From contig CAYLXA010000011.1 of NCBI GenBank assembly GCA_964387845.1, positions 34,715-98,714 of the forward strand: 64,000 bases of DNA, read 5' to 3'. This document shows, piece after piece, positions 24,579-57,979 of the stretch. Origin of the DNA: an uncultured bacterium. GTDB lineage: Bacteria > Omnitrophota > Omnitrophia > Omnitrophales > Abzuiibacteriaceae. How positions within the stretch are numbered: the stretch's first letter is position 1; every line of letters begins with the position of its first letter. Position numbers and translations under genes: made by a program. A model generated the notes under the pieces. That model made no database searches, had not been told where the DNA came from, and worked only from the letters and a program-made list of their open reading frames with translations.

Positions 24579-24623
24579 ACGCACCCATGTTAATTGTCAT
24601 CCATCCAAACCGTATTCATTAAC

Positions 24624-25655: not shown

Positions 25656-26386
25656 AAGCAATTTGCGTGATTCCGGCCCGGCTTGAATCCACAAGACTTG
25701 CGCGCAAACTTTTAAGGCCTCTTGCTGGCAAACTTTTGATACAATACGCCTACGAAAATGCAAAGCGCGCCAAAAAATGTGCAAAAGTTTTAGTGGCCTG
25801 TGATCACGAAGATTTGATAAAGGCCGTCGAAGCGTTCGGCGGCGAAGCGGTGCTGACGAGTGAGTATCACCAAAGCGGTACCGAAAGAATTGCGGAAGTG
25901 GCGGAAAAATTTCCGGCCGATGTGTATGTGAATTTACAGGCGGACGAGCCGCTCCTTCATTCGAGCGCAATCGATGATCTGATTTCCGCTTTTGAAGTCG
26001 AGCCGGATTTGAAAATGGCGACGGCTTGCATCCGGATGCGCGAAGAATCCGATTTTCTGAACCCGAATGTCGTAAAAGTGGTCAAAAATCAGAAGGATGA
26101 AGCGCTTTATTTTTCGCGTTCGCCGATTCCGCATGACCGCGAAAAGGCATCGACAGATTTTTTTAAGCATCTCGGGATTTACGCGTATGAGCGTCAGTTT
26201 TTGATTAAAATTCCGAAGCTGACGGCGTCGAATTTAGAAAAACGCGAGAAATTAGAACAACTGCGCGTACTCGATAACGGTTTTACGATCAAAGTTTTGG
26301 AAACGGCTTACGATTCGATCGGCGTTGATACGGAAGAGGATTTGAAAAAAGTGGAGAAAATATTGAAAGAAGGCGCCCGTGCCTAA
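25652..26386 (+). CDS. kdsB: 3-deoxy-manno-octulosonate cytidylyltransferase (CMP-Kdo synthetase)
   Basis: [11 protein letters not shown] and GTERIAEV motifs. ATGA overlap with the upstream gene. Confidence 0.9.
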
Positions 26387-28061
26387 GTATATTTTTGTGA
26401 CCGGCGGCGTGGTTTCATCGCTCGGCAAAGGCATTGCTTCCGCGTCCATCGGCAAGCTGCTCGAAACCAAAGGGCTTAAAGTCATGATGCAAAAGCTGGA
26501 TCCTTACATCAACGTGGATCCCGGCACGATGAATCCTTACGAGCACGGCGAAGTTTACGTGACGGATGACGGCGCCGAAACGGATTTGGATTTGGGCCAT
26601 TACGAGCGCTACACACATTCACCGCTCGGAAAGTTCAGCAACGTCACGACCGGCCAGGTTTATTACAGCGTGATTTCAAAAGAGCGGCGCGGCGATTATT
26701 TGGGCAGCACCGTTCAAGTAATTCCGCACATCACGGATGAAATCAAGGAAAGAATCCGCGCAGTGTCGAAAGGCAAACGCTGCGATGTCGTGATTTCCGA
26801 AATCGGCGGAACGGTCGGCGATATCGAATCGCTTCCGTTTTTGGAAGCCGCGCGCCAATTCCGCCACGAAGTCGGGCGCGACAATGTGATTTTCATTCAC
26901 CTCACACTTCTTCCGTTTATCCGGGCAGCCGGAGAACTCAAAACAAAACCGACTCAGCACAGCGTCGGCCGTTTGCGCGAAATCGGTATTCAGCCCGACA
27001 TTTTGCTTTGCCGGACGGAACGCCGCCTGGGAAATGACTTGAAACGTAAGATCGCGCTTTTCTGCGACGTGGATACCGACGGCGTCATCGAAGCGCGCGA
27101 CGTTCGGACGATTTATGAAGTCCCGCTGATGTTTAAAGAGCAAGGACTCGACAAAGCGATTTGCCGCTTTTTGGGAATCGATTATAAAGCCGGCAATTTG
27201 CAGGATTGGAAATCGAACGTTGTGGATAAGGTCCTTAATCCGAAGCATCGCGTCAGAATCGCGGTGGTCGGAAAATACATCGAACTGAAAGACGCCTATA
27301 AATCAATTTATGAGGCGCTTACGCATGCCGGTATTGCAAGTAATACGGAAGTGATCATCCGCCGCTACAACGCTGAGCGGATGATGAAGGGGAATTTGGA
27401 CCGCTTTCTCTGGAATATTGACGGTATTTTGGTTCCGGGTGGATTCGGCAGCCGCGGCATCGAAGGAAAAATCCGCGTGATTCAGTACGCGCGTGAAAAT
27501 AAAGTGCCGTTTTTCGGCATTTGTTTGGGGATGCAATGCGCTGTGATTGAATTTGCGCGCAACGTTGCCAATCTCAAAAATGCAAACTCCACCGAATTCA
27601 ATAAAAAGACCCCGCATCCCGTGATCAGCATGCTGGAAGAGCAGGAGGGCGTTAAAGACCTGGGCGGCACCATGCGCTTGGGTGCATATCCGTGCGATTT
27701 GAAAAAAAATACGAAAGCGCATGACGCGTACCGCGCAGACCAAATTTCAGAGCGCCACCGCCACCGTTACGAATTCAATAACAAATACCGTGAAACGCTC
27801 GAGTCACACGGGCTGCGCGTTTCGGGAACCTATCAAAATAATAAGCTGGTTGAAATCGTTGAGTTGCCGGAACATCCGTGGTTTGTGGCCGGCCAGTTTC
27901 ATCCGGAGTTTCAATCAAAGCCTGACGTGCCGCACCCATTGTTCAAATCATTTGTAGCCAAGGCGCTTCAATTTAAGCGCTCGGTTGATTTAGCGGATCA
28001 TGAACAAGACGACGATAACCAAAACACCGAAACCATCCATGAAACCAGTACGCTTGCTTGA
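26379..28061 (+). CDS. pyrG: CTP synthase
   Basis: GTG start giving [18 protein letters not shown]. Glutamine amidotransferase domain with GICLGMQ. Confidence 0.93.
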
Positions 28062-28860
28062 CATTACTTTCGGAAGCCCGAACGAGTTTGTGTTGATCGC
28101 GGGCCCCTGTGTCATTGAAAACGAGAAAAGCGCGCTGCGCCACGCCGAGAAAATTTCGCAGGTCGCACGCGAACTTCAGATTCCGTACGTGTATAAATCC
28201 AGTTTCGACAAAGCCAACCGCTCTTCCGGAGATTCCTTTCGCGGTCCTGGTATCAAAAAAGGCTTGGCAATTCTGAAGAAAATCAAAAAGGAATTTGATG
28301 TTCCGATTTTAAGCGACATTCACGAAATTGCGCAGGTGAAGCCGGCTGCTGAAGTGATCGACATTCTGCAAATCCCGGCGTTTTTGTGCCGTCAGACGGA
28401 TTTGGTGGTTGCGTGTGCCAAGACGAAAAGAATTGTGAACGTGAAGAAAGGCCAGTTTTTGGCGCCGTGGGATATGAAAAATATCGTCCGAAAAATTGAG
28501 GCCGCCGGAAACCGCAATATTTTACTCACGGAGCGCGGCGTTTCGTTCGGCTACAATTATTTGGTGAGCGATTTCCGCGCGATCCCGGTCATGCGCGAAC
28601 TGGGTTATCCGGTTGTGTTCGACGCAACGCATTCCGTACAGCTTCCGGGCGGCTTGGGGCATGCTTCAGGCGGTAACGCCGAATTTATTCCGACGCTTGC
28701 ACGCTGCGCGATTGCGAGCGGTGCCGATGCGATTTTCATGGAAGTCCACGAAAATCCGAAGGAAGCCAAATCCGACGGGCCAAACAATTTGCCGCTTTCA
28801 GAACTCAAGTCGCTTCTTACGGTTTTAAAACACATCCGCCGGGTAGCGCCTGTCCACTAA
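28039..28860 (+). CDS. kdsA: 3-deoxy-8-phosphooctulonate synthase (Kdo8P synthase)
   Basis: [11 protein letters not shown] and [11 protein letters not shown] motifs. Start at the internal ATG, overlapping the pyrG end by 23 nt. Confidence 0.9.
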
Positions 28861-28861
28861 A

Positions 28862-29827
28862 ATGAAATCCGACCGCACGCTGGCCAAAAAAATCATCAAA
28901 GTTGAAGCTGACGCGATCAAAGCGCTTTTGTCGCGCATTGACCAAAAGTTTGAGAAAGCGCTCAGCTTGCTCGAAAATGCCTCAGGCCGTGTCATCATCA
29001 CGGGAATGGGCAAGCCCGGTTTGATCGGCCGAAAAATCGCGGCAACACTTGCTTCGACGGGAACGCCGAGTCTTTTTTTACATCCGGCCGAAGCCATTCA
29101 CGGTGATTTGGGGATGGTGACGAGGCATGACGTTGTGCTAGCGATTTCAAACAGCGGGGAAACGGAAGAAATCACAAAACTGCTTTCCACGATTAAAAAA
29201 ATCGGCTCCAAATTAATCGCGTTAACGGGGAATTTGAAATCCACTTTGGCGCGCCATGCGGACGTGGTTCTGGATGTCGGCGTTCATTCCGAAGCTTGCC
29301 CATGGGGCTTGGCACCGACCGCTTCAACAGCGGTTGCGCTTGCGCTTGGCGATGCGCTTGCGTTATGTCTTGCGAAACGAAAAGGCTTTAAATCCGAAGA
29401 TTTCGCATTTTTGCATCCGGGCGGCAGTCTCGGTAAAAAACTGCTGCGCGTGAAAGACATCATGCGGACCGGAAAAGCGCACGCGGTTGTGAAAGAATCG
29501 ACCACCGTCGAGAAAGCGCTCTTTGCGATTACGGCTGCACGTGCAGGATCTTGCAGTGTTGTGAATTCAAGCGGAAGGCTGGTCGGGTTTTTTACCGACG
29601 GCGATTTGCGGCGTCATTTGAGGGAAGAGGGTGTCCGCATTCTTCAGATGCGGATTTCGAAAATCGCTACCCGGAAACCGACCACGATTTTGCAGGATCA
29701 TCTGGCAGCGGAAGCTTTTCAAAAGCTTCGGGACCGTAAAATTGACGAACTTCCTGTCGTAGATCAAAAGGGCCGCGCAGTCGGGCTCTTGGATGTTCAA
29801 GATCTTCTCAAAGCCGGTATTTTTTAG
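28862..29827 (+). CDS. kdsD: arabinose-5-phosphate isomerase (KpsF/GutQ family; SIS domain plus CBS pair)
   Basis: SIS motif ITGMGKPG... plus a tandem CBS domain at the C-terminus. Confidence 0.88.
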   Translation: MKSDRTLAKKIIKVEADAIKALLSRIDQKFEKALSLLENASGRVIITGMGKPGLIGRKIAATLASTGTPSLFLHPAEAIHGDLGMVTRHDVVLAISNSGETEEITKLLSTIKKIGSKLIALTGNLKSTLARHADVVLDVGVHSEACPWGLAPTASTAVALALGDALALCLAKRKGFKSEDFAFLHPGGSLGKKLLRVKDIMRTGKAHAVVKESTTVEKALFAITAARAGSCSVVNSSGRLVGFFTDGDLRRHLREEGVRILQMRISKIATRKPTTILQDHLAAEAFQKLRDRKIDELPVVDQKGRAVGLLDVQDLLKAGIF

Positions 29828-30085: not shown

Positions 30086-30808
30086 ATGAAGCGACTACTT
30101 GGTTTGGTGTTTATAATCTGCGGGCTATGTATTTTTGCCAACCGTTCTTTTGCCGAGTTTTACGGTGATCCGGTGCTCGGTCTGGTTGATTTCAAGGAAG
30201 ACCGCTACGGCGCGTCATTCTACGTTCCGGAAAATTATGATGCCAAGCAAGATTGGCCGCTTGCCGTGGTGCTTTATTCGGATGAGGCAGAAAAAGGAAA
30301 ATTGTTTGTCGATAAATGGCTTGCGGAAGCCAAAAAGCGGAAGGTAATCGCTCTTTTTATATCGTATCTGAATCCGCAGGAAATGCCGTTCGGCTCCGAC
30401 GAACGGACGCTCGGGATTGTGGAAGAGATCAAGCGGCGTTATTCGATCGCGAGCGACAAAATTTTACTTTCAGCGTTCGGCGAAGCCGCTCATTACGCTT
30501 ATTATTTGGCGTTCCGGTATCCCGACGAATTTCGGATGGTTGGCTTAATCGGCGGCGGCGCAGAAGGCCGCTATGAACCATTTTTAAATTACGGTCACAG
30601 TAAAGTTAAAAATGTTTCGTTTTTGATTTTGTACGGTATGAAGGATCCGTTGATTGATGGGACAAATTTTACCGAGAAGCATAAACAGCTTGCGCTGCGC
30701 GGGCAGAATATCGAAATTGAAGCATTTGAAAATTTAGACCGCAAGGCTTATCCGGAACAAATCGGAAAAGTCATGGACTGGTTTACAACACTGAAAAAAA
30801 TAAAATGA
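30086..30808 (+). CDS. secreted alpha/beta-hydrolase (esterase / PHB-depolymerase-like)
   Basis: N-terminal signal peptide (MKRLLGLVFIICGLCIFANRSFA). Esterase-like core. Stop overlaps the ilvB ATG (ATGA). Confidence 0.6.
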   Translation: MKRLLGLVFIICGLCIFANRSFAEFYGDPVLGLVDFKEDRYGASFYVPENYDAKQDWPLAVVLYSDEAEKGKLFVDKWLAEAKKRKVIALFISYLNPQEMPFGSDERTLGIVEEIKRRYSIASDKILLSAFGEAAHYAYYLAFRYPDEFRMVGLIGGGAEGRYEPFLNYGHSKVKNVSFLILYGMKDPLIDGTNFTEKHKQLALRGQNIEIEAFENLDRKAYPEQIGKVMDWFTTLKKIK

Positions 30809-44834: not shown

Positions 44835-44872
44835 ATCTGCAGGCGCTTTGCTCGGTCGGGCTGATCAAGTTC

Positions 44873-45773: not shown

Positions 45774-47063
45774 ATGTTGTTTCGCTTGTTGTACAAAGCA
45801 GCTCTTTGTTTATACGGTTTGGCTTACTTGCCTCATTTAATCATGCGGGCAAAGCAGGAGCCCGATCAAGGCCGCTTTTTGAAAGAACGGCTCGGAAATT
45901 TCGCGCAGGATTTCGGCGGTGCGCCGTGGATTTGGATTCATGCCGTCAGTGTCGGTGAAGCCATGGCGCTCCGAAAATTTCTCGAAAACCTGCAGGCGCG
46001 TTTTCCGGAGTTCCGGATTTTAATTTCGACCACGACGCCGACAGGCCAGAAAATCGCGCAAGGTTTTAAAAACGAAAAAATCCGCGTGGTTTATTTTCCG
46101 CTGGATTTCCGGTCAATGATGAAACGCGCAATTGATGCGGTAAAACCGCGCATGATTGTTTTGATGGAAACCGAAATTTGGCCGCATCTGATTGATTTGG
46201 CGCATGAACGGCGGATTCCGATCGGCATTATGAACGGACGGATTTCGGAGCGTGCTTTTAAGAAATACCGAAAGATTAAGTTCTGGATGTCGCCCATTTG
46301 CGCCAAGCTTTCATTTTGCCTGGTACGTGAAAACGGTGACCGGGAGCGTTTTCTCGAGCTGGGAGTTTCGGTGGATAAGATTCAAGTGACGGGCAATATG
46401 AAATATGACGTTGATGCGGAATTAGATGCAGCCGCGTTGCGTGAATTTCAGACAGCGCTCGGACTTCAAAATGAATTGCTTTGGACCTGCGGCAGTACGC
46501 ATGACGGGGAAGAGGCGGTTTTGCTCGAGGTATTTTCGAAATTAAAGGAGAAATTTCCGAAGTTGAAGCTGATTTTAGCGCCGCGCCATCCGGAACGTGC
46601 ACTTCAAGTATTAAATCTGGCAAAAAATGCCGGATTTCAAGCCGTGCTTTACAGCCGGAGGGAATCAGCTTTTGATGTGTTGGTGGTGGATCTTGTGGGG
46701 CTTTTGCAGAAATTTTATGCGGTATCGAATTTGGTGTTTGTCGGCGGAAGCTTGATTCCGCACGGCGGGCAAAACCCGATTGAGCCGGCTCGCGAAAGTA
46801 AGCCAGTGCTTTCCGGGCGCCATGTTCACAATTTTGAGCAAGTGTTCGAACAGTTGGAAAAATCCGGAGGTGCTGTTCTGGTTTCCGGATCGGAAGAATT
46901 ATACAAGCACGCTTTATCGCTTTTAACGGATCTGCCCAGAACGAAAGAAATGGGTGAGCGTGCTTACAAAACAGTTAACGGATTAAAAGGCGCTTCGCAA
47001 AGAAATTTGCAGGCCCTCGAACCTATTTTGCGTTCAGCAGAAAAACTTGAGGTGGTTACATGA
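45774..47063 (+). CDS. waaA: 3-deoxy-D-manno-octulosonic acid transferase (Kdo transferase)
   Basis: GT30: WIHAVSVGEAMA and GGSLIPHGGQNPIEPA motifs. Confidence 0.88.
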   Translation: MLFRLLYKAALCLYGLAYLPHLIMRAKQEPDQGRFLKERLGNFAQDFGGAPWIWIHAVSVGEAMALRKFLENLQARFPEFRILISTTTPTGQKIAQGFKNEKIRVVYFPLDFRSMMKRAIDAVKPRMIVLMETEIWPHLIDLAHERRIPIGIMNGRISERAFKKYRKIKFWMSPICAKLSFCLVRENGDRERFLELGVSVDKIQVTGNMKYDVDAELDAAALREFQTALGLQNELLWTCGSTHDGEEAVLLEVFSKLKEKFPKLKLILAPRHPERALQVLNLAKNAGFQAVLYSRRESAFDVLVVDLVGLLQKFYAVSNLVFVGGSLIPHGGQNPIEPARESKPVLSGRHVHNFEQVFEQLEKSGGAVLVSGSEELYKHALSLLTDLPRTKEMGERAYKTVNGLKGASQRNLQALEPILRSAEKLEVVT

Positions 47064-48094
47064 CGACAAAGAATTATTTTAAGTCAATTATTGAAGGCAG
47101 GCGCAACGACGCCGACGCTTCGTTCTGGAAACCCTTGCTGTCACTGGCAAGCCGTTTGTACCGGACGGCGGTCGAGGCGCGCAAGTCGTTTTACGACAAA
47201 AAAGTTTTCAAATCCAAAGCGCTTCAGATTCCGGTGATCAGTATCGGAAACATCACCTGGGGCGGCGTCGGGAAAACACCGCTTACGCAATACATCAGCC
47301 GGTTTTATTTGGACCAAAAGAAAACCCCGCTCATTTTAACGCGCGGTTACGGTAATGACGAAACGCGTGAGTTCCAGACCAAGGTTCCGGAAGCGCTTTT
47401 GGGCGTCGGTAAAAACCGTTTTGAAGTGGCCAGTCAGCTGCTCAAAAGCCAAAAAGCCGATGCTGCGATTTTAGACGACGGTTTTCAACATTACCAGCTT
47501 GCGCGCGACCTTGATATTGTGGTGATAAATGTGCTCAATCCTTTCGGAAATGAAAAACTCATTCCGCGCGGTATTTTGCGCGAACCGCTTGAAGCGCTTG
47601 ACCGGGCGAATATCGTTGTATTCAACGATGTGAATTTAATTTCGCGCAAATCATTCGAATCCATCCGCGACCGCGTGAAACAACTAGCGCCGCGCGCGGA
47701 ACTGATCGAAGCGCAGCATGAGCCGCTCTACTTTTATTGGGCAAAATCAAAAGCGCGCATGGACCTGAACAAGGTCAGCGGAAAGCCGGTTACGACATTC
47801 TCGGGCGTCGGAACCCCTCGGTCATTTCAGCTTTTGCTTAATTCCTTGGGCGTGAAAACCGTCCGGAATTTTGAATTTTGTGACCATCATCCGTTTTCGG
47901 AAAAAGAGCTCCAGGAAATTCAGGAGGTCAAACGGTCAAGCCAGTCCGAGTTTGTCATCACGACCGAAAAAGACCTTCTCAGAAAAGAAGAGCTGATCAC
48001 AAACATCCTAGATCCGCTGGTTTTAAAAATTTCGATGCGCATCACGGTCGGGGAATCGATTTTGCAGGACCGTTTGCGGCACATTTTGCGTTAA
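47060..48094 (+). CDS. lpxK: tetraacyldisaccharide 4'-kinase
   Basis: P-loop GNITWGGVGKTP. ATGA overlap with waaA. Confidence 0.88.
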   Translation: MTTKNYFKSIIEGRRNDADASFWKPLLSLASRLYRTAVEARKSFYDKKVFKSKALQIPVISIGNITWGGVGKTPLTQYISRFYLDQKKTPLILTRGYGNDETREFQTKVPEALLGVGKNRFEVASQLLKSQKADAAILDDGFQHYQLARDLDIVVINVLNPFGNEKLIPRGILREPLEALDRANIVVFNDVNLISRKSFESIRDRVKQLAPRAELIEAQHEPLYFYWAKSKARMDLNKVSGKPVTTFSGVGTPRSFQLLLNSLGVKTVRNFEFCDHHPFSEKELQEIQEVKRSSQSEFVITTEKDLLRKEELITNILDPLVLKISMRITVGESILQDRLRHILR

Positions 48095-48107: not shown

Positions 48108-50051
48108 TTGTTCGATTCACTGGCTTATCATACGGTTAAAATTTTCGCGGGGTTTATCCAGCGCATGCCGGTCGGTTTTAATTTTTTTCTGGCCGGTATT
48201 TTGGGGAATCTCGCGTATTTATTGGATAAACGGCGCTACGTGGCTTATGCCAATCTGAAGGCCGCCTTCGGTACCGAATGGACGCCGCGTGAAATCAGGG
48301 CGATTATCCGGAAAAGCTACGTCCATTTTGCGAAAACTATGATGGAAATTCTTTATTTTCCAAAAATGGATAAAGCTTATATCGAAAAATATATTCAAAT
48401 GAATAATCCCGAGTTTTATCAAGAGGGTGTCAGCGGTAAAAAAAGCACTATTTTTATGATGGCACACTTTGGCAATTGGGAGCTTGCGCAAATTTATTCC
48501 GGCATTCTAGACAAACCGCTTCATATTTTTGCGCGTGATCAAAAGCACACCCGCTTGAATGATTTTTTAAATCAACTCCGCGCCGCGCACGGCGCCCAAA
48601 CCATTTCAACCTCACGGGTCCGCGAACTTATGCGGGCCATTCGGGAGAAAAGGGCCATCGGCGCTTTGGGCGATCAGGGCGGCGGGCCGGATGGAGTTAT
48701 CGCGCCGCTTTTTGGGCGCAAAGCCACATTTCCGAGAGGGCTGGTTTCGCTTGCCGCGAGAATGGGAGCATCGATTGTGCCTGCTTTTATGATTCGCCAA
48801 AATGGCCCGTATCAGCTGATCCAGGTTTTTCCGCCGCTTAATTTAATTCAGACAGGCAATCAGGAAAACGATGAAATTAAGAACAATCAGCTCTTTTTAA
48901 ATCACCTGGAAAAAATGGTCCGGCAATATCCGGAACAGTGGTTATGGCAGTATAAATGGTGGAAATTTTCCAGGACCAAGAAAGTTTTGATTTTGGAAGA
49001 TACGAAAGCCGGCCATGCCGCACAGGCGCGCGCGATCGGCCGGGAATTTGAGAGACTGGCCAAAGAATTGCCCGAGGGTTATGAAATCAAAACCGAATAT
49101 GTGAAGGTTGAATTTAAAAACAAACTGGCTTCGATTCTATTTTTTCTCGACTCGTTTTTCTTTTACCCTTTTGCGCAAAGCCGGCTTTGGATTATGAAAT
49201 GGTATTTGAAGCCGTCTTCGTTCGAAAAAATCAAAAATGTGCATGCGGACGCCGTTGTGGCCTGCGGCTCCAAATTAACACCGGTTGCGTTATGGCTTTC
49301 GCGAGAAAATTTGGCCAAAACGGTTATCGTGATGAAACCTTCGTTCCCATACCAATTTGCGCATTTTGACCTTGTGATTTTGCCGAAGCATGACCATGCC
49401 GGGAATTTGAAGTCTCATCATATCCGGACCACGGTTGCGCCGAATCTGTCGGATATCGATCATTTGAATCACCACCGGCAGAAATTGGCGGATGTTTTGC
49501 ATCTCAACGGAAAATCAAGGCTTTCGATTTTTATCGGCGGTGACTCCAAATCATACAAATTGGAGAAGTCAAAGATGGAAAATTGGCTGAATACTTTGGC
49601 CGAGCTCAGCCGGAAAAAACATATGGAGTTTATGATCACAACATCGCGCAGGACAGGCGCCGGCATTGATGCGCTTGTCCGAGAAAAAACGGCGAAAAAT
49701 CCGAATTGTAAGTTGATGGTGATTGCAAACGAGAAAAATATCGAAGGCATTACTTACGGGATGCTCGCTTCTTCCGATGTGGCGGTTGTGACCGAAGACA
49801 GCGTATCGATGATTTCGGAAGCTTTGAGCGCGGGGAAGCGCGTGATTGTGCTCAAGGCCGGAAACGGCCAATTACCGCGTAAACACCGTGAATTTCAGGA
49901 ACTTTTGGCGAGCGAGGGTTTAATCGAAGTGGCAACTGCCGATGATTTTTCTGTTAAATTCGAAACTGCTCAAAAACACGGAGCAAATACAAATTTGATC
50001 GAAGCAGAACGAAAATTAATTCGGGATGAGCTCAGAAAAATTTTAATCTAG
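48108..50051 (+). CDS. fusion protein: N-terminal LpxL/HtrB-family lipid A late acyltransferase (~290 aa) plus a C-terminal ELM1/DUF1022-like domain (~350 aa)
   Basis: TTG start with AAGGAG 9 nt upstream. The N-domain has HFGNWE and a WLWQYKWWK ending typical of Lip_A_acyltrans. The C-domain has IFIGGDSKSYK and ITTSRRT motifs like ELM1-family proteins. Confidence 0.7.
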   Translation: MFDSLAYHTVKIFAGFIQRMPVGFNFFLAGILGNLAYLLDKRRYVAYANLKAAFGTEWTPREIRAIIRKSYVHFAKTMMEILYFPKMDKAYIEKYIQMNNPEFYQEGVSGKKSTIFMMAHFGNWELAQIYSGILDKPLHIFARDQKHTRLNDFLNQLRAAHGAQTISTSRVRELMRAIREKRAIGALGDQGGGPDGVIAPLFGRKATFPRGLVSLAARMGASIVPAFMIRQNGPYQLIQVFPPLNLIQTGNQENDEIKNNQLFLNHLEKMVRQYPEQWLWQYKWWKFSRTKKVLILEDTKAGHAAQARAIGREFERLAKELPEGYEIKTEYVKVEFKNKLASILFFLDSFFFYPFAQSRLWIMKWYLKPSSFEKIKNVHADAVVACGSKLTPVALWLSRENLAKTVIVMKPSFPYQFAHFDLVILPKHDHAGNLKSHHIRTTVAPNLSDIDHLNHHRQKLADVLHLNGKSRLSIFIGGDSKSYKLEKSKMENWLNTLAELSRKKHMEFMITTSRRTGAGIDALVREKTAKNPNCKLMVIANEKNIEGITYGMLASSDVAVVTEDSVSMISEALSAGKRVIVLKAGNGQLPRKHREFQELLASEGLIEVATADDFSVKFETAQKHGANTNLIEAERKLIRDELRKILI

Positions 50052-50061
50052 AGGAAACCTC

Positions 50062-52233
50062 ATGAGAGTACTTCAAGTATTGCCGGAACTGAATGTGGGC
50101 GGGGTTGAACGCGGCGTGATTGACCTTGCGCGCGCCATGAAAAAACACGGCGAAGAAATTCATGTGATGTCGCGGGGTGGTGCGCTTGTCCAGGAACTCG
50201 TGAAGATGGGCGTGCCGCATTATGCGCTGCCGGTTCACGATAAATCAATTTGGTCATTGCGCCTCGTGAAGGAAATCGCAAAAATCATCGAACGTGAGCG
50301 CATCGACATCGTGCATGCCCGAAGCCGCGTGCCGGCTTGGCTTGCATATCTGGCAGCACGCCGCACGAATTGCGATTTTATTACGACCTGCCACGGTTAT
50401 TATTCGAAGCATTTTCTAAGCCGCATCATGGGCTGGGGAAAGCGCGTGATTGTAATCTCGCACAGCATCGGCCGCCGCATGATCGATGATTTTCACGTGC
50501 CGCCCGAGCGGATCCGTCTCATCCACCGCGGCGTAGATTTAACGCAGTACACATTTTCACCCGAAAAATATCTGAAGCCGGCCGGCGAGAAATTCAAAAT
50601 CGTCAACATCGGCCGCATCACGCCCATCAAAGGCCAGAAGGAGTTCATCCAGGCGATTCATCTCCTGAGCAAACAAATTCCGAATGTGGAAGCTTGGATT
50701 GTTGGTTCGGCGGATGACCGGAAAATGGAATATTTCGAAGAGCTGAAACTTTTTGTCGAACGGACCGGCATGACCAAGCACGTAAAATTCTTGGGAACGA
50801 GGCGCGATATTCCGGAGCTTTTGCGCGAGGCCGACCTACTGGTGCTTTCCACGAAAATTCCGGAAGCATTCGGGCGCGTGATCATTGAGGCAGGGGCAGT
50901 CGGGACAGCGGTGTGCGCATCGCGAATCGGCGGCATTCTCGATATCGTTGAAGACGGCAAAAACGGGCTTCTTTTTTATCCGCTTCACATCGAAGAAATG
51001 GTCAAAGCGATGACACAGCTGCTCAAAAACCGGAAGCAATGCTACGACTTCGCGCACAAGCTCCGCGAGAAAGTCGAGCGTGAATTCAGTCTCGAGCAAA
51101 TGGTCGACAAAACACTCGAAGTTTACCGCGAAACCCGTCAGGAGCGCAGGATTTTGATTATTAAACTTGGCGCGGCAGGCGACCTGGTTTTGGCGATACC
51201 AAGTTTCCGCATGCTGAGGAAAAAATTTCCGAATGCGCACATTTCACTTTTGGTTGATTCAAAATTGACCTCGCTCGTAGAAAATTGCCCCTATATTAAT
51301 GAAGTGATCGCTTATGACCGCGGCGAAAAAACAAACCGGCTGCGAAGGCTTCTGAAACTTTCGAAAAGCCTGGCTGAGCGGCGCTTTGATTTGTCGATCG
51401 ACTTACAGAATAACGCCAAAACGCATTTAATCAGCTTCCTGGGCCGTATCCGCAACCGAATCGGGTACTTGAGGGGATGGAGCGGCCATTTGCTCAGCAA
51501 GCCCGTGTTAGAGCCCAAGCAGCTTTTGGCGCCGATTGAACATCAGTTCGAGCTCCTGAAACGTGTCGGAATCACACAGCTCGATACCGAAATGGAATTG
51601 TGGCCGACGGAACAGTCGGAAAAGTTTGCGGAAGAGCAATTGAATACAAACCAGCATTCACATCAGCCGCTTGTCGGCTTTGTGATGGGTTCAAGTCCGG
51701 GTTGGCCCACAAAACGCTGGCCGGTAGAACATTTCCGAGAGCTTGCGGAACGCATTGTGCAGGATTTAGACGGTAGAGTCGTCCTTTTGGGCGCGCCGGG
51801 CGAGGAAGGCCTTGCGGATGTATTTAAAAATCATTCTCTGGGCACAGACCGCCTCATTAATTTGATCGGAAAAACCACTTTTTCGGATATGGCAAGCGTG
51901 ATCAAGAGGTCGAATGTATTGGTATCCGGCGATAGCGCACCCATTCACATTGCGGCTGCTACGAAAACAAAACTCGTCGCCTTTTTTGGGCCCACGGAGC
52001 CTAAGCGCCATTTGCCGCCCGGTGCCGATCACGCGGTTTTGGTGCGGCGGATTCCGTGCCAGCCGTGTTACTCGGGCCATTGTAAAAACCCGGATACGTT
52101 GGAATGCCTCAAAAAAATAAAAGTAAACGAAGTATTTGAGCAAGTGAAATATCAGCTTGCATCCGCACAAAAGAGCCGCGCGAAGCATGACGCTTCGGAA
52201 GATAAGGTCGGCACGCCGGCGGAATCCGTTTAG
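50062..52233 (+). CDS. fusion protein: N-terminal GT4-family glycosyltransferase (RfaG-like) plus C-terminal GT9 heptosyltransferase domain
   Basis: The N-domain has the EX7E motif (EAFGRVIIEAGAVGT). The C-domain starts RILIIKLGAAGDLVLAIPSF and ends with the Cys-rich CQPCYSGHC segment. Confidence 0.75.
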   Translation: MRVLQVLPELNVGGVERGVIDLARAMKKHGEEIHVMSRGGALVQELVKMGVPHYALPVHDKSIWSLRLVKEIAKIIERERIDIVHARSRVPAWLAYLAARRTNCDFITTCHGYYSKHFLSRIMGWGKRVIVISHSIGRRMIDDFHVPPERIRLIHRGVDLTQYTFSPEKYLKPAGEKFKIVNIGRITPIKGQKEFIQAIHLLSKQIPNVEAWIVGSADDRKMEYFEELKLFVERTGMTKHVKFLGTRRDIPELLREADLLVLSTKIPEAFGRVIIEAGAVGTAVCASRIGGILDIVEDGKNGLLFYPLHIEEMVKAMTQLLKNRKQCYDFAHKLREKVEREFSLEQMVDKTLEVYRETRQERRILIIKLGAAGDLVLAIPSFRMLRKKFPNAHISLLVDSKLTSLVENCPYINEVIAYDRGEKTNRLRRLLKLSKSLAERRFDLSIDLQNNAKTHLISFLGRIRNRIGYLRGWSGHLLSKPVLEPKQLLAPIEHQFELLKRVGITQLDTEMELWPTEQSEKFAEEQLNTNQHSHQPLVGFVMGSSPGWPTKRWPVEHFRELAERIVQDLDGRVVLLGAPGEEGLADVFKNHSLGTDRLINLIGKTTFSDMASVIKRSNVLVSGDSAPIHIAAATKTKLVAFFGPTEPKRHLPPGADHAVLVRRIPCQPCYSGHCKNPDTLECLKKIKVNEVFEQVKYQLASAQKSRAKHDASEDKVGTPAESV

Positions 52234-52235
52234 CA

Positions 52236-53249
52236 ATGGTCATTATTTGCGTCCTCAAGAATTGGCTCGGCGATGTGATTTTCACATCGCCTGCGCTCCG
52301 GACGATCCGGATGAATTATCCGGCCGCACAGATTATTTGTCTGGCGCCCAAACGCTGCTCGGATATTTTGCGGGCAAACCCCAATGTGGACGAAGTCATT
52401 TCATTTGACGAACGTAGCGAACAAAAAAGTTTATCGGAAAAATGGAAGCTGATTTTAAAGCTGAGGCGGTTTAAGCCGGATCAAGTTTATTTGTTTCACA
52501 GGTCGCTCACGCGCGCATTTTTGATGTTCCTGACCGGCGCTAAGGAGCGGATCGGGTATGCCGGCAAGCGCGGTTTTCTATTAACAAAAGCAGTTGCCGA
52601 GCCCAAAGAAAGAATGCACGCGGTTGATTATAATTTAGAGCTTTTGCGAAGAGCCGGATTTCAAGTCACGGGAGATGCTCTCTATGAATTCCGCTTTGAC
52701 AAGAAAGATTTGGAAAACGCGAAAAGAATCATTACGGAAGCGGAATTGGGCCATGAACGGATTATCGCGATTCACCCGGGCGCCAATTGGCCGCCCAAAC
52801 GCTGGCCAATCGAGCATTTCCGCGCGTTGTCACTTGAGCTGACGCGCCGTTACCGGGTGTCGGTTGTGATTACGGGCGGCGCCGATGACCGCGAAGCGGC
52901 CGAGAAAATTGCGGCTGATGCCAGTCATCCGAACATTCGGTCACTTGCCGGAAAAACAAGCTTAAAAGAGCTCGGCGCATTATTTTCACTTTGCACGCTT
53001 ATGATTTCTTCCGATTCGGGGCCGCTTCATATCGCAGGCGGCGTCGGTACAAACGTGCTCGGCATTTTCGGGCCTACGAATCCTGCGCTCACCGGCCCTC
53101 GGGGCAGGGGTAAAAATGTGGTCATTCATTATGTGCCGAAAGGAATGAAATCGCCTTGGTTTGGTGACGAATTTCCTCAGTCCGGCTGGATGGAATTAAT
53201 TACGGTCAATGAAGTTTTACAGACTATCGAACGGGAAAGGCTTTTGTAG
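52236..53249 (+). CDS. GT9 family ADP-heptose:LPS heptosyltransferase
   Basis: VLKNWLGDVIFTSPALRTI start and the C-terminal GPLHIAGGVGT motif. Confidence 0.8.
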   Translation: MVIICVLKNWLGDVIFTSPALRTIRMNYPAAQIICLAPKRCSDILRANPNVDEVISFDERSEQKSLSEKWKLILKLRRFKPDQVYLFHRSLTRAFLMFLTGAKERIGYAGKRGFLLTKAVAEPKERMHAVDYNLELLRRAGFQVTGDALYEFRFDKKDLENAKRIITEAELGHERIIAIHPGANWPPKRWPIEHFRALSLELTRRYRVSVVITGGADDREAAEKIAADASHPNIRSLAGKTSLKELGALFSLCTLMISSDSGPLHIAGGVGTNVLGIFGPTNPALTGPRGRGKNVVIHYVPKGMKSPWFGDEFPQSGWMELITVNEVLQTIERERLL

Positions 53250-53250
53250 G

Positions 53251-54183
53251 ATGGATCTTTCAAAGGTTGAAAAAATCTTGGTCGTGACGCTGAGTAATTT
53301 GGGCGATATTGTGCTCACGACACCGGTGATGGCAGCGCTGCGCGACCGATTTCCAAAAGCATTTATGACAGTTATTGTCGGGCCAAAAGGCAAAGACCTT
53401 TTAGCCAACAGCGCGACGATCAACGAAATTTTGATTTATGATAAAACGAAGCCGCTTTTCGAAAGGGCGAAATGGGTCTTGGAACTTCGGAAACGGAAGT
53501 TCGATCTTGCCGTCGACCTTCGCAATACAGCAATCCCACTGCTTGTCGGCGCACGATATTTTAACAGCATCTTTTTTGATCATCGCGAAAAGCGAGCCCG
53601 GAAAAAGCATTTAAGCCGGATTCAATTTTTGGGGATCGGAGAGCCGAAGAGCCGGTTTCAATTTTTTACGCCGGATGAAGAAAAATCGGCGCTTGCGAAA
53701 TTGAGAAAAGCCGGTGTGTTCAATGAATCTTGGATTGCGATTGTGCCGGGCGCGGCCAACCATTTGAAGCGCTGGCCGTATGAGCGTTATGCTGAAATAG
53801 CAGCTCACTTTAAACAGAAAGGATTTCAAACGGTTATTGTGGGAAGCGGCGCCGAACGTGCGATGGGCGACCTGGTTGCTAAGTGCAATCCGGGCATTGG
53901 CATTATCAATGCCTGCGGTTCATTTGAGATCCGCGAGGTGGCAGCTGTTCTGAGTCATTCGAAATTGATTGTATGCAACGACAGCGGCCTGATGCATTTG
54001 GCAAATGAGCTTGATATTCCTGTGGTTGCTATTTTTGGGCCCACGAATCATTTGCAATACGGTAAGTTTGGCCCTAAAAACCGGGTGGTTCACGGCGACG
54101 GCAGCCAGTTTTCTATTCATCAAATCAAAACTCCGGATGTTGTCCGCGCGTGTGAGGAATTATTAAATGGCGCCCAACATTAA
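53251..54183 (+). CDS. GT9 family heptosyltransferase
   Basis: ILVVTLSNLGDIVLTTPV start and GLMHLANELDIPVVAIFGPT motif. Confidence 0.8.
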   Translation: MDLSKVEKILVVTLSNLGDIVLTTPVMAALRDRFPKAFMTVIVGPKGKDLLANSATINEILIYDKTKPLFERAKWVLELRKRKFDLAVDLRNTAIPLLVGARYFNSIFFDHREKRARKKHLSRIQFLGIGEPKSRFQFFTPDEEKSALAKLRKAGVFNESWIAIVPGAANHLKRWPYERYAEIAAHFKQKGFQTVIVGSGAERAMGDLVAKCNPGIGIINACGSFEIREVAAVLSHSKLIVCNDSGLMHLANELDIPVVAIFGPTNHLQYGKFGPKNRVVHGDGSQFSIHQIKTPDVVRACEELLNGAQH

Positions 54184-55231
54184 CCCGGGAAAAATCAAAC
54201 GCATTTTGCTGGTTCGTACAGACCGCATTGGTGATGTGGTGGTCACAACGCCGGTTTTTCGTGCCGTTAAGGAACAATTTCCAGCCGCACATCTTGCCAT
54301 TCTCGTCGACAAAGCGCTTCGCGATTTGGTGGAAGGACATCCGGATTTAGATGAAGTTATTTTGTATGATAAAAAAGGAAGCGAAAAAAGTTTGCTGGGA
54401 GCTTTCCGCTTTGCTCGTACTTTAAAACAAAAAAAGTTTGACGCTGCCATTCATTTTCATCCGCGCGCCCGCGCATACTGGACAAGTTTTCTGGCCGGCA
54501 TTCCGGTTCGAATCGGATACAAAAGAAAGAACCATTGGCTGCTTACGCATTCGATCAAAGACAATAAGGGCGAAGGGAGAAAGCATGAAGCGGAGTATGT
54601 TTTTGATTTGCTGGCACTTTTAGGAATCAAGCGCCCCCAAAAACTGATTGCTAGCATACCGCTTCAGGAAAAGAGCCAGGAAAGTGCAGAGCGGCGCTTG
54701 AGCGGCATCGGCCGGTTTTTTGCAGTCCACCCGAGCGCCAGTTCGCCGTCTAAAATTTGGCCGGCTTCGTATTTTGCGGAAGTCGCGGATTTTTTAGCGC
54801 AAAAATTTCAGCTGACACCGGTTTTAATCGGCGGAGCTTCGGATTCGAAGCAGGGCAAAACCGTTTTCAGTTTGATTAAATCAAAATCGATTAACTTGTG
54901 CGGCCAATTAAGCTTGGGTGAATTGGCCTGGGTGCTCAAAAAATCCGAATTGGTGATTTCGAATGACTCCGGGCCAGCACATATCGCTTCTGCGGTCGGA
55001 GCGCCCGTCATTTCCATTTTCGGCCGAAGTTTGGCCGGCCTCGGGCCTGTGCGCTGGCATCCGCTCAATGAAAAGAGCTGGTATCTGCAGAAAGACGTGG
55101 GCTGTGCGGTTTGCCTTGCGGATTTATGCCAGATTGAGTTTAAATGCCTGACCGAATTAAAGCCTGCGGATGTGATTCAATTGATCGAAGAAAAACAAAG
55201 CGAGATTTTTCAGCATGCAAAAGCCCGTTAA
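54167..55231 (+). CDS. GT9 family heptosyltransferase
   Basis: ILLVRTDRIGDVVVTTPV start and GPAHIASAVGAPVISIFG motif. Confidence 0.8.
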   Translation: MAPNINPGKIKRILLVRTDRIGDVVVTTPVFRAVKEQFPAAHLAILVDKALRDLVEGHPDLDEVILYDKKGSEKSLLGAFRFARTLKQKKFDAAIHFHPRARAYWTSFLAGIPVRIGYKRKNHWLLTHSIKDNKGEGRKHEAEYVFDLLALLGIKRPQKLIASIPLQEKSQESAERRLSGIGRFFAVHPSASSPSKIWPASYFAEVADFLAQKFQLTPVLIGGASDSKQGKTVFSLIKSKSINLCGQLSLGELAWVLKKSELVISNDSGPAHIASAVGAPVISIFGRSLAGLGPVRWHPLNEKSWYLQKDVGCAVCLADLCQIEFKCLTELKPADVIQLIEEKQSEIFQHAKAR

Positions 55232-56366
55232 ACGAGTGCTTCTCATTCATCCTTTCGGAATCGGCGATGCGCTTTTCATGACGCCCGTGATTGATGCGTT
55301 GAAGCAAGCCGGTGCCGAAAAAATCGATTTGCTTTTGGGCAGCCGGACAAAAGCCGTTTTTGAGCATAACCCGTCCGTTGATGAAATTTTCGTTGTTGAC
55401 CGAGACAAGATCCGGAGCCAGTCAACATTCCGTAATATTTTGGAAACAGCGAAACTGGTTCTTAAACTCCGGAAAAACCGGTATGACCATCTGTTTGATT
55501 TCTCTTTGGCGCGGCAATACGCATTTTTTGCTTTTTTATTTCTCAACATTCCGAAACGCATCGGATTTCATTATAAAAGGCGCGGCATTTTCCTGACACA
55601 CAGGATGGTTCTCGAGAAAAGTTTTTCCGGCAAGCACGTGATTGAATATTATTTAGAACTTTTGAAATTCGTCTCTATCCGGCCGTCTACGCGCTCGATC
55701 CAACTGTCCATCACAAAAGAAAATGAAGACGAAGCAGAGGGTGTTCTACGCAAAGAAAACGTTCCGCCATTTTTTGCCGTTGCGGTCCCGGGCGGCGGCG
55801 AATCCTGGGGGAAAGATGCCCGGCTTAAGCGGTGGCCGACGGCGCATTTTGCGAAATTGTTTGAACTTATCGACAAAGACAAAAGTTTAGGATCGGCGCC
55901 TTTCAAAGTTGTTATTTTGGGCGGCAAAAGTGAATCGGAGCTTGCCGAATCTCTAAAAGCTTTGAACCCCGGCCGCTTTATTAATTTAGCGGGGAAGCTG
56001 CCGCTTCTTGCTTCGGCGGCGGTTTTAAAACGCGCACGGCTTCTTGTGGCCAACGACGGCGGTTTGGTGCATGTCGCAGCGGCCGTTGGGACGCCCACGA
56101 TTGCTTTATTCGGGCCGGTTGACCCGAAAGTTTACGGCCCGTATCCGCTTCACCCGGCGCGTATCGCAGTCACAAACGACGGACCGGAATGCCGTCCGTG
56201 TTATCAAAATATGCGTTATAATAGCGCCTGTGAACATGTGGAATGTTTAACCGGACTTTCGCCGGACGGTATTTTTTACCGGCTCAGTGAGTCCGGATTT
56301 TTTGAACGAATTCAAAAAGCGCCGGTTTCTGCGGCAGCCGATACTCATTTATATGAAAATCAATAA
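55215..56366 (+). CDS. GT9 family heptosyltransferase
   Basis: VLLIHPFGIGDALFMTPV start and GLVHVAAAVGTPTIALFGP motif. Cys-rich ECRPCYQ segment. Confidence 0.8.
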   Translation: MQKPVKRVLLIHPFGIGDALFMTPVIDALKQAGAEKIDLLLGSRTKAVFEHNPSVDEIFVVDRDKIRSQSTFRNILETAKLVLKLRKNRYDHLFDFSLARQYAFFAFLFLNIPKRIGFHYKRRGIFLTHRMVLEKSFSGKHVIEYYLELLKFVSIRPSTRSIQLSITKENEDEAEGVLRKENVPPFFAVAVPGGGESWGKDARLKRWPTAHFAKLFELIDKDKSLGSAPFKVVILGGKSESELAESLKALNPGRFINLAGKLPLLASAAVLKRARLLVANDGGLVHVAAAVGTPTIALFGPVDPKVYGPYPLHPARIAVTNDGPECRPCYQNMRYNSACEHVECLTGLSPDGIFYRLSESGFFERIQKAPVSAAADTHLYENQ

Positions 56367-57159
56367 GATTTGGTGGCTTATTATTTTGTCATTGGCGCTC
56401 AGCGCATGCGCCCATAGACCGCGCGCCGTTCAATTTCCGAGTAAAATTGAAAAGCCGAAATTTACGATCCCGCTCGGTGAAAAAATCAACTACAGTATCC
56501 GCTGGCTCGGCTTTGAAGTGGGCACCGCGCAAACGGAAGTGAAGGAAATTGTGCAGATTAACGGCCGCGATGCTTACCACGTCGAAGTGAAAGTACGCTC
56601 GAATCGGCTGATCAGCTTGATTTATCCGGTCCGCGACGAACACCATAGTTACATTGATGTCGAACATCTTTACTCGCTTCGCTATGAGAAAAAGTTGAAA
56701 GAGGGAACCTACGAAGCAGATGATTTAATCGAATATGACCAAATTAATCACAAGGCGCGTTACGAGTCGCGCAGAAACGGGACGATCAAAGAAATGCTGA
56801 TTCCAAAAGACGTTCAGGACCAGCTTTCGTGCACATATTGGTTCCGCATGCAGGAAATGAAGCCCGGCGACCGGCTCCAAATTCCGGTCAATGTCGACGA
56901 GAAAAACTGGAATTTGGAAGTTCAAGTGCAGGCATGGGAAGAGCTGGAAGTCGACGGTTTTGGCCGGGTAATTGCAATCCGCGCAGAACCTTTGGCTCGG
57001 TTTCACGGCTTGTTTGTCCGGAAAGGGCGCGCCTGGGGCTGGATGGGAACGGACCATAGGCGCATTCCGCTTTTAATGAAAACCGAAATTCCGATTTTAG
57101 GTTCGATTGAAATGGTAATTACGGAATACAAGTACGGCGATGACCACATCAAAGCATAA
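56353..57159 (+). CDS. DUF3108-family lipoprotein
   Basis: Start at the ATG that yields the lipoprotein signal MKINKIWWLIILSLALSAC, with lipobox LSAC. Beta-rich body. Confidence 0.65.
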   Translation: MKINKIWWLIILSLALSACAHRPRAVQFPSKIEKPKFTIPLGEKINYSIRWLGFEVGTAQTEVKEIVQINGRDAYHVEVKVRSNRLISLIYPVRDEHHSYIDVEHLYSLRYEKKLKEGTYEADDLIEYDQINHKARYESRRNGTIKEMLIPKDVQDQLSCTYWFRMQEMKPGDRLQIPVNVDEKNWNLEVQVQAWEELEVDGFGRVIAIRAEPLARFHGLFVRKGRAWGWMGTDHRRIPLLMKTEIPILGSIEMVITEYKYGDDHIKA

Positions 57160-57979
57160 AAAGAAACATCAGAAACTCATCAAGAAGCGCGGCCGCCGCC
57201 GTTTTCGCGCGCAGGTTTTGCTGTGGATCGCGGCGTTTTTGGCCGCATTTTATCTTTTCACATTCCGCGAAATTCCGGTCTTGATGTATCACTTTATCGG
57301 GACCGAAGCCGAAGCGCGCGAGAACTCTTTGATTGTTTCCGCCAAAACGTTTGACCAGCAGCTTTCTTGGCTTCGTCAATGGGGTTATCGGATTTACTCG
57401 TTGGAGGAATATGAGGCGCTCAGGGCTCACCGTTCGTTTTCTTTCGAAAAGGGTGTTGTGATTACGTTTGATGACGGCAATATCGGATTCTTGACGAATG
57501 CGCTGCCGATTCTCGAGAAATACCAAGCGCCTGCAGCCAATTTCATGGTGACTGATAGCATGCGCAAAAAAACAAACGGCAGCGTGTCGGTGGAAGATGC
57601 GCGCAAACTTGCCGAAAATCCGCTGATTACGCTAGGGTCCCACACCGTTCATCACGTCGGTTTGATGGACCAATCAGAGCTTGCGCTTCGGAAAGAAATA
57701 GCGGGTTCACGGCGCGAACTTTCGAAAATGCTCGGCAAAGACATTGCCTATTTTGCGTACCCGGGCGGATTTTTTGACGAAGAAGCGCTTGAGATGGTCA
57801 AATCGGCCGGTTATCGGCTGGCATTTACGACTTCGTGGAAGCGTTTGAAAGGCGACCAGGAAAATGCGTATTCAATCGTGCGCGTGAAGGTAACCGAAAA
57901 AGACAGAAATCCGGCCAACTTTTGGTACAAAATATCCGGCTTTTACACGCTCTTGAAACGGCTGCAGAACGCATTTTAG
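57140..57979 (+). CDS. polysaccharide deacetylase (CE4 / NodB homology domain) with an N-terminal membrane anchor
   Basis: VITFDDGN (Asp-Asp metal motif) and the LGSHTVHH His motif. N-terminal TM segment. Confidence 0.75.
   Translation: MTTSKHKKKHQKLIKKRGRRRFRAQVLLWIAAFLAAFYLFTFREIPVLMYHFIGTEAEARENSLIVSAKTFDQQLSWLRQWGYRIYSLEEYEALRAHRSFSFEKGVVITFDDGNIGFLTNALPILEKYQAPAANFMVTDSMRKKTNGSVSVEDARKLAENPLITLGSHTVHHVGLMDQSELALRKEIAGSRRELSKMLGKDIAYFAYPGGFFDEEALEMVKSAGYRLAFTTSWKRLKGDQENAYSIVRVKVTEKDRNPANFWYKISGFYTLLKRLQNAF

Follow-up and report, generated by a model that had tools for sequence, protein, structure and literature searches.

The stretch of DNA analyzed in the current study (the window) comprises 64,000 nucleotides (nt) from an uncultured bacterium of the phylum Omnitrophota, family Abzuiibacteriaceae (assembly GCA_964387845.1, contig CAYLXA010000011.1, positions 34,715 to 98,714). 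The open reading frame (ORF) at positions 48108-50051 (+) of this window encodes a protein of 647 amino acids (aa), in which a late lipid A acyltransferase of the LpxL type is fused to a glycosyltransferase (GT) of the GT-B fold, belonging to the ELM1/GtrOC1 family and related to KdoT of Acinetobacter baumannii. This assignment is based on the translation, Pfam matches and an AlphaFold2 (AF2) model. The ORF is single and without interruption, lies 13 nt after the lpxK stop codon and 10 nt before the next gene, and has a TTG start preceded by an AAAGGAG ribosome-binding site. The start is supported by the homologues, which align from residue 1. The AF2 model of the whole chain had a mean predicted local distance difference test score (pLDDT) of 92.9 and a predicted template modeling score (pTM) of 0.87, and was confident through the junction between the two domains.

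The N-terminal domain (aa 1-295, 48108..48992, +) contains a hydrophobic helical segment at about aa 12-40 and matched PF03279 (Lip_A_acyltrans) at aa 12-286 (E 1.5e-40, 139.6 bits against a cutoff of 22.3), covering positions 21-294 of the 295 in the profile. Its HFGNWE motif (aa 120-125, 48465..48482, +), which holds the catalytic H120-x4-E125 dyad, aligns to HFGTWE of LpxM, and the fold is of the LpxM/PatA type. At the position of E125 the 5KNK chain, deposited as the catalytic-residue substitution E127A, has an alanine. Identity to the characterized LpxL and LpxM enzymes (PF03279; A. baumannii LpxM structure 5KN7/5KNK) is about 20-25%, and the window protein differs from these in carrying a second enzyme at its C-terminus. 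The best NCBIfam equivalog score was 138.3 bits against a cutoff of 248, with the remaining models falling further short; judged by sequence, the domain is a member of the LpxL/LpxM family that is not assignable to the LpxL, LpxM or LpxP subtype.

The interdomain junction (aa 287-296, FSRTKKVLIL, 48966..48995, +) consists of the end of the LpxL domain, about five linker residues and the first GT-B beta-strand, as judged from the Pfam borders (aa 286 and 301) and the AF2 secondary structure (strand E290-297). The C-terminal domain (aa 296-647, 48993..50048, +) matched PF06258 (Mito_fiss_Elm1) at aa 301-610 (E 3.2e-53, 181.3 bits against a cutoff of 27) and was modeled as a GT-B fold with two Rossmann-like lobes. 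An earlier note, made from the letters of the window, had described a late lipid A acyltransferase with an HFGNWE signature joined to a C-terminal half of the ELM1 family with a GGDS...TTSRRT signature, and had proposed a hidden Markov model (HMM) search as a check. Both domains gave significant Pfam matches, and the motifs were found where that description placed them: the GG of GGDS at aa 477-478 (49536-49541, +) and the SRRT motif of the ELM1/GtrOC1 family at T512-S-R-R-T516 (49641..49655, +).

The note also described the ELM1/DUF1022 family as having no established function in bacteria, which is outdated in view of recent work on A. baumannii A1S_2903/GtrOC1 (PMC10936431, PMC12856342). Deletion of this ELM1-like gene truncates the lipooligosaccharide of A. 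baumannii to Kdo2-lipid A (Kdo, 3-deoxy-D-manno-oct-2-ulosonic acid; PMC10936431, mBio 2024). The purified protein, renamed KdoT, was shown to move a third Kdo from cytidine monophosphate (CMP)-Kdo to Kdo2-lipid IVA in vitro, with the tetra-acylated substrate preferred, while lipid IVA was not usable as an acceptor (PMC12856342, JBC Dec 2025). R180 of the invariant SRRT motif is required for activity and was modeled beside the Kdo carboxylate of CMP-Kdo, and single alanine mutants at D8 or H13, the candidate catalytic bases, stayed active (PMC12856342). A distant Rickettsia homologue partly replaces KdoT in a delta-kdoT mutant (PMC12856342). After KdoT, the GT4 enzyme GnaT (LpsB) adds N-acetylglucosaminuronic acid (GlcNAcA), and the two proteins are mutually dependent in vivo in A. 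baumannii, for a cause that is unexplained (PMC12856342). These findings depart from the rule that WaaA adds all of the inner-core Kdo, and the functional evidence has so far come from the Acinetobacter and Rickettsia homologues. Plant ELM1, the founder of PF06258, is a mitochondrial outer-membrane protein that recruits DRP3A, an adaptor for which no enzymatic role is known (PMC10936431); it shares the Pfam family with the window domain but is a eukaryotic mitochondrial protein, whereas the context here is the synthesis of lipopolysaccharide (LPS).

The C-terminal domain of the window protein showed 31% identity to A. baumannii KdoT (BLASTP, E 5e-19, in an alignment limited to the donor-side half), with TTSRRT aligned residue for residue, and in a phmmer search with KdoT as the query this ORF was the sole match in the window (E 2.5e-16). 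The KdoT sequence was taken from a chromosome-sized record filed among plasmids (L001:7815-8702), where it lies directly after ilvE. In a multiple alignment, KdoT residues D8, H13, H109, D110, R179 and R180 corresponded to D298, H303, H428, D429, R514 and R515, respectively. D298 and H303 are part of a DTKAGH motif in the acceptor-side lobe (48999..49016, +), and H428-D429 is encoded at 49389..49394 (+). The C-terminal domain gave no match to PF04413 (Glycos_transf_N) or to the WaaA equivalog models, and a sequence search of the PDB did not find a solved structure of the ELM1 family. NCBI already labels some of the fusion proteins as 'ELM1/GtrOC1 family putative glycosyltransferase', and JGI as 'KDO2-lipid IV(A) lauroyltransferase'.

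One feature of the acceptor lobe sets the window domain apart from KdoT. A hydrophobic and aromatic helical insertion of about 40 residues (aa 335-375, 49110..49232, +, containing ...LASILFFLDSFFFYPFAQSRLWIMKWYL...) is clade-specific and corresponds to a gap in KdoT and in the Methylophaga and Sinorhizobium proteins (alignment A2). Its hydropathy peaks at aa 338-358 (KD19 1.26), and helices were modeled at aa 339-355, 360-365 and 369-375. The insertion in the Omnitrophota proteins might be an element that contacts the membrane or a lipid. In the clade of LpxK-fused or standalone proteins described below (P0141, P0143, P0156, P0212), the insertion (equivalent to about aa 345-365) is replaced by a cysteine-rich version, e.g. 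GCGRCLRCLRFCL and RCRSCLGCLRFCL, which might bind a metal or be lipidated.

The fusion was found to be standard among the Omnitrophota. When 5.8 billion proteins were searched, more than 120 clusters (90% identity) carried both Pfam domains, with lengths of about 647 aa and 33-100% identity to the query, and all named clusters among them came from Candidatus Omnitrophica/Omnitrophota. In an exhaustive HMMER search with the C-domain alone (E <= 1e-3), 2,274 representatives at 50% identity were matched, and the LpxL domain was also present in 116 of the 150 nearest. A scan of the GTDB species-representative genomes, queried with a five-sequence C-domain alignment (A4), gave at least 558 matching stretches. 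The best 80 of these, all from Omnitrophota metagenome-assembled genomes (MAGs) or loosely labeled bins of the Planctomycetes-Verrucomicrobia-Chlamydiae group, were classified with local HMMs and form the basis of the locus counts given here. The LpxL-ELM1 architecture occurred in 74 loci and an LpxK-ELM1 architecture in four, while in two the ELM1 ORF was cut by a contig edge. Full-length fusion ORFs were mostly 646-690 aa long.

These data bear on the possibility that separate lpxL and ELM1 genes were joined by a misassembly or a frameshift error, or by a chance event that happened recently and in one genome only. Standalone ELM1 genes do exist in related lineages, as such an event would require, but the same architecture and length recur in independently assembled genomes of 74 of the 80 species as well as among the clusters and nearest representatives, and the AF2 model is confident across the junction. 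An artefact was rejected on these grounds and can for practical purposes be dismissed; the stop codon or assembly error that the earlier note had named as a possible refutation was not found, and the fusion is genuine.

The residues expected to form the two active sites were highly conserved. H120 and E125 were kept in 72/72 of the GTDB species ORFs that cover this region and were invariant in alignment A1. In the C-terminal domain, S513, R514, R515 and H428 were each kept in 80/80 species, and D298, H303 and D429 in 79/80 each; this active site, too, was invariant in alignment A1. This is the pattern expected from purifying selection on an active site, and both active sites appear from the alignments to be under selection. 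It argues against the view that the C-terminal domain is inactive and acts instead as a scaffold or membrane-association module for the GT4-GT9 enzyme encoded next to it, or as a regulator of the acyltransferase. That view would draw on the adaptor role of plant ELM1, on the unexplained co-dependence of KdoT and GnaT in vivo and on the continued activity of the candidate catalytic-base mutants (PMC10936431, PMC12856342). Conservation of the same residues in proteins that have diverged down to about 30% identity, together with the finding that KdoT alone is sufficient for catalysis in vitro (PMC12856342), makes an inactive domain improbable.

The gene lies in a co-directional and tightly packed block consisting of topA, xerC, waaA, lpxK, the fusion, a GT4-GT9 gene, four GT9 genes, a DUF3108 gene and a polysaccharide deacetylase gene. 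The position of the fusion immediately downstream of waaA and lpxK agrees with the earlier reading of the locus as a waaA-lpxK operon. The first gene of the LPS part, waaA (45774..47063, +), encodes a Kdo transferase of family GT30 (PF04413, E 1.3e-58); the NCBIfam models for lipid IVA Kdo transferases gave at most 362.8 bits, below their cutoffs, and the position of the gene is conserved in the Omnitrophota loci. It is followed by lpxK (47060..48094, +), encoding the tetraacyldisaccharide 4'-kinase (PF02606, E 3.7e-70; TIGR00682, 150.1 bits against a cutoff of 91.95). The gene preceding the fusion was lpxK in 68/80 of the GTDB loci, and the next gene encoded a GT4-GT9 protein in 71/80 and a GT4 protein only in 5/80, so that a GT4 domain directly follows the ELM1 domain in 76/80. 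The order waaA, lpxK, LpxL-ELM1, GT4-GT9 was kept across these loci down to 34% protein identity, and synteny over 20 kb was kept in relatives whose fusion proteins are only 48% and 34% identical. In one locus (L073), an extra standalone LpxL-type gene lies upstream of lpxK, at the usual position of waaA, in addition to the LpxL-ELM1 fusion.

The gene downstream of the fusion (50062-52233) encodes a protein of 723 aa that is itself a fusion of a GT4 domain (50062..51144, +) and a GT9 domain (51145..52233, +), the latter similar to heptosyltransferase II, WaaF (PF01075, E 3.2e-36; TIGR02195, 170.6 bits against a cutoff of 134.6). When the GT4 domain was compared with a plasmid collection of 72,556 records (353 matching), the top four matches were A. 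baumannii LpsB (35% identity, 99% coverage, E 3e-55), followed by the GT4 protein encoded after the Methylophaga fusion described below (E 2e-45), a Thalassospira GT4 protein (2e-33) and generic GT4 proteins (about 1e-17 to 1e-21). A direct BLASTP comparison with LpsB gave E 4e-72. The retrieved LpsB has 366 aa and the EX7E glutamates E283/E291 as published, and these align to E268/E276 of the window GT4 domain. With LpsB as the query, the GT4 ORF was the only match within the window (E 3.3e-61). Since LpsB is the best match of the GT4 domain and has no other counterpart in the window, the gene order of ELM1 followed by GT4 mirrors the reaction order of KdoT followed by GnaT. The two systems differ in that A. 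baumannii lpsB is a single-domain gene far from kdoT, whereas the window GT4 domain is fused to a WaaF-like GT9 domain. No description of a bifunctional GT4-GT9 core glycosyltransferase was found in the literature searched.

Downstream of this gene are four further GT9 heptosyltransferase-like genes (52236-53249, 53209-54183, 54167-55231 and 55215-56366; together 52236..56366, +; PF01075, E 1e-30 to 1e-39), two of which (52236-53249 and 54167-55231) passed the TIGR02195 cutoff. The block ends with the DUF3108 gene (56287-57159) and the polysaccharide deacetylase gene (57140-57979), both assigned by Pfam (56287..57979, +). Many Omnitrophota loci keep the deacetylase gene, whose product is homologous to one encoded next to kdoT in the A. 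baumannii outer-core (OC) locus. The window domain and A. baumannii KdoT have in common the Pfam family, the SRRT motif and the other aligned residues, the GT-B fold, an LpsB/GnaT-type GT4 partner and this deacetylase. KdoT, however, is a standalone protein of 296 aa encoded in the outer-core locus, whereas the window domain, a putative Kdo transferase, is joined to LpxL directly after waaA and lpxK.

The genes required to supply the sugar donors were also found in the window, in a cluster at 24594..29827 (+) assigned by Pfam that comprises the rfaE domain I heptose kinase (24594-25655), kdsB (25652-26386), pyrG (26379-28061), kdsA (28000-28860) and kdsD/kpsF (28862-29827). The heptose kinase, kdsB, kdsA and kdsD matches passed the curated NCBIfam cutoffs (TIGR02198, 391 bits; TIGR00466, 205.6 bits; TIGR01362, 403.3 bits; TIGR00393, 323.9 bits), indicating that this genome can make CMP-Kdo and heptose precursors. 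The pyrG gene, encoding cytidine triphosphate synthase, is neatly placed among the genes for making CMP-Kdo.

A canonical lpxB gene was identified at 4542-5804 (-) (PF02684, E 9.9e-97), and the window also encodes an MsbA-like exporter. With lpxB, the exporter gene and waaA all present, the ELM1 domain represents an addition to the pathway and not a substitute for one of its enzymes. The alternative, in which the domain replaces a missing canonical GT-B enzyme, either LpxB or WaaA, was rejected, because both genes lie in the window (waaA only two genes upstream of the fusion); the inability of KdoT to use lipid IVA (PMC12856342) also makes such a replacement very improbable.

Taken together, these data suggest that the fusion protein is probably a bifunctional enzyme, with Kdo2-lipid IVA as the substrate both for acylation and for the addition of one more Kdo. 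In the proposed scheme, the N-terminal domain would use its H120/E125 dyad to place an acyl chain, presumably from an acyl-acyl carrier protein, onto Kdo-substituted lipid IVA. The C-terminal domain would act as an inverting GT-B transferase, with Kdo from CMP-Kdo as the most likely donor and R515 of the SRRT motif positioning the donor carboxylate, and would add an extra Kdo to the Kdo2-lipid IVA made by the WaaA and LpxK proteins encoded upstream. The product would then accept the sugar added by the GnaT/LpsB-like GT4 domain that the next gene encodes, after which the heptosyltransferases would act. Fusion behind the hydrophobic N-terminal segment of LpxL would co-localize both halves and fix their ratio at 1:1. 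From the homologues and the gene context we infer which sugar is donated and at which position it is accepted, which of the two reactions comes first, and any channeling between the domains.

In E. coli, LpxL requires the Kdo2 unit on lipid IVA. The fact that KdoT favors Kdo2-lipid IVA (PMC12856342), combined with this requirement, would place both halves of the fusion on one shared membrane-bound intermediate. The suggestion in the earlier note that the ELM1-like domain acts on Kdo-lipid A is in this respect well supported, both by the biochemistry of the homologues (PMC10936431, PMC12856342) and by the context data.

Several observations weigh against a Kdo-transferring bifunctional enzyme. 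The identity of the C-terminal domain to KdoT is only about 30%, and an acceptor lobe with a 40-residue insertion that is absent from KdoT means that the acceptor specificity may differ. PF06258 is a large and mostly uncharacterized family, with functional tests limited to the members from Acinetobacter and Rickettsia, which makes a transfer of the donor sugar to the window domain uncertain. The fold searches with the C-terminal domain returned generic GT-B neighbors only and did not discriminate the donor sugar. No UDP (uridine diphosphate)-GlcNAcA biosynthesis gene was seen in the window, which makes the donor of the GnaT-like domain uncertain as well. The N-terminal domain, for its part, scores below every NCBIfam equivalog cutoff, and by this measure its acyl chain, position specificity and Kdo dependence are not assignable.

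The low identity to KdoT, the insertion, the large family and the generic fold matches would also fit an active GT-B enzyme that works on Kdo-lipid IVA or the inner core but transfers another sugar, such as a different ulosonic or a uronic acid, or transfers Kdo to another position, e.g. by supplying the second Kdo where WaaA is monofunctional; the number of Kdo residues added by the WaaA of this locus is not readable from its sequence. On the other side, SRRT, the proposed holder of the Kdo carboxylate, is invariant, and the Rickettsia homologue that complements the delta-kdoT mutant is comparably distant (PMC12856342). Moreover, the LpsB/GnaT-like partner, which in Acinetobacter needs the KdoIII acceptor, is conserved in the adjacent position, and a family member in Sinorhizobium is encoded two genes from a kdsB paralogue. 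On balance, a different sugar or position seems unlikely, though it is the most serious competitor of the bifunctional Kdo-transferring enzyme.

Fusions of ELM1 domains to lipid A enzymes were not limited to this architecture. A minority lineage of the Omnitrophota carries LpxK-ELM1 proteins instead, in operons without an LpxL domain, as judged from Pfam and the loci. These proteins have about 680-720 aa (L006:1784-3940, L030, L032, L064 and L086; P0156, P0208, P0212 and P0227), and one of them (L032) is encoded on a complete 1.55 Mb chromosome (CP070837.1). A related lineage (L008:896-2990 and L009:870-2964) has an unfused ELM1 gene (365 aa, P0141) that shares 41 nt with the end of lpxK, an arrangement from which the LpxK-ELM1 fusion could plausibly have arisen.

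An LpxL-ELM1 fusion of 674 aa was also found in an LPS core cluster on plasmid pWTT2411 of Methylophaga pinxianii (L002:5729-11989), where it is followed by genes for an LpsB-like GT4 protein, another glycosyltransferase, a GT9 protein and an O-antigen ligase. Genes for a PAP2 phosphatase, a diacylglycerol kinase and a member of the lipoteichoic acid synthase family lie near this cluster. The LpxL domain of the Methylophaga protein shares 40-49% identity with gammaproteobacterial LpxL proteins but only 29% with the Omnitrophota N-terminal domain. For its ELM1 domain, identity is 41% to a standalone protein of the family but only about 30% to the window domain, and its linker has about 75 aa compared with about 5 aa in the window protein. 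Because of these differences in domain identity and linker length, a common origin of the two LpxL-ELM1 fusions was ruled out, and the Methylophaga fusion is considered to have arisen separately.

The closest relatives of the Methylophaga LpxL domain are mostly parts of LpxL-WaaA fusions. Such proteins (PF03279 and PF04413, about 730 aa) were found in dozens of clusters from gammaproteobacterial MAGs, one of them named Thiohalophilus (P0272-P0383). They resemble the window protein in the covalent pairing of a late acyltransferase with a Kdo transferase, but the latter is the canonical GT30 WaaA instead of an ELM1/KdoT-type enzyme, and they occur in another phylum. Since LpxL-WaaA fusions are common, the joining of a late acyltransferase to a Kdo transferase appears to be a recurrent design. 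Single examples of LpxL-GT9 (P0273), LpxL-GT2 (P0384) and LpxL-EptA (P0385) fusions were also observed. In A. baumannii CP035931.1 (L090:1800-4098), lpsB/gnaT lies immediately downstream of a gene annotated as 'lauroyl acyltransferase' (lpxL type), and by this gene order a late acyltransferase is linked to the KdoT/GnaT step in that organism also. No mention of LpxL-ELM1 or LpxL-WaaA fusions, or of Omnitrophota LPS, was found in the literature searched.

An auxiliary enzyme for a third Kdo is known from E. coli K-12, in which WaaZ is responsible for the inner-core KdoIII beyond the residues added by WaaA. WaaZ belongs to an unrelated protein family, is non-essential, acts non-stoichiometrically and is not known to be fused to lipid A enzymes.

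What is new in the present case is the architecture, its spread through the phylum and its repeated independent origin; both domains come from known, characterized families and the chemistry is not new. Throughout this uncultured phylum, the core LPS operon has the KdoT-type module and its GnaT-like partner as constant components, and fusion of the module to a lipid A enzyme has taken place on at least three occasions, to LpxL and to LpxK in the Omnitrophota and to LpxL on the Methylophaga plasmid. These fusions provide evidence, independent of the Acinetobacter genetics, that the family acts on Kdo2-lipid IVA alongside late acylation, and structural and biochemical work on the coordination between core glycosylation and lipid A acylation could make use of the fused proteins.

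A more far-reaching and decidedly speculative proposal is that the operon fusions (LpxL-KdoT, LpxK-KdoT in sister lineages and GnaT-WaaF) hard-wire these enzymes into a physically coupled assembly line on the inner membrane. Addition of the branch Kdo and secondary acylation of Kdo2-lipid IVA would then be obligatorily linked through substrate hand-off or mutual activation. If this were the case, the split pathway of WaaA and KdoT would be an ancient, phylum-wide feature and not an oddity of Acinetobacter, and the mutual dependence of KdoT and GnaT in vivo could be explained in structural terms.

Some other genes of the window deserve mention. The topA and xerC genes (42762-45769, +) lie immediately upstream of waaA, as they do in most of the examined Omnitrophota loci (L004-L089), and their linkage to the LPS core operon is unusually stable. 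On the opposite strand, a gene for an oxidoreductase of the GFO/IDH/MocA type (5677-6621, -) overlaps the 5' end of lpxB. Its best NCBIfam match was UDP-GlcNAc (UDP-N-acetylglucosamine) 3-dehydrogenase (226.8 bits against a cutoff of 450); a GnnA-like enzyme beside lpxB would hint at 2,3-diamino-2,3-dideoxy-D-glucose (GlcN3N) in the lipid A backbone. The Pfam match in the lpxB ORF begins at aa 47, and for this reason the true start of lpxB is probably further downstream and the overlap smaller.

A GT87-like membrane glycosyltransferase gene (12338-13552), to which NCBIfam assigned nothing, adjoins a PAP2 phosphatase gene (13798-14463, +), and the two may form a lipid-phosphate remodeling pair. 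Between kdsD and an ilvB-like gene lies an ORF of 240 aa (30086-30808, +) without a Pfam or NCBIfam match. Directly after the LPS block, the ORF at 58937-63046 (+) encodes a protein of 1,369 aa with right-handed beta-helix, CHU_C-like and FlgD Ig-like domains, which is probably a large surface or secreted protein.

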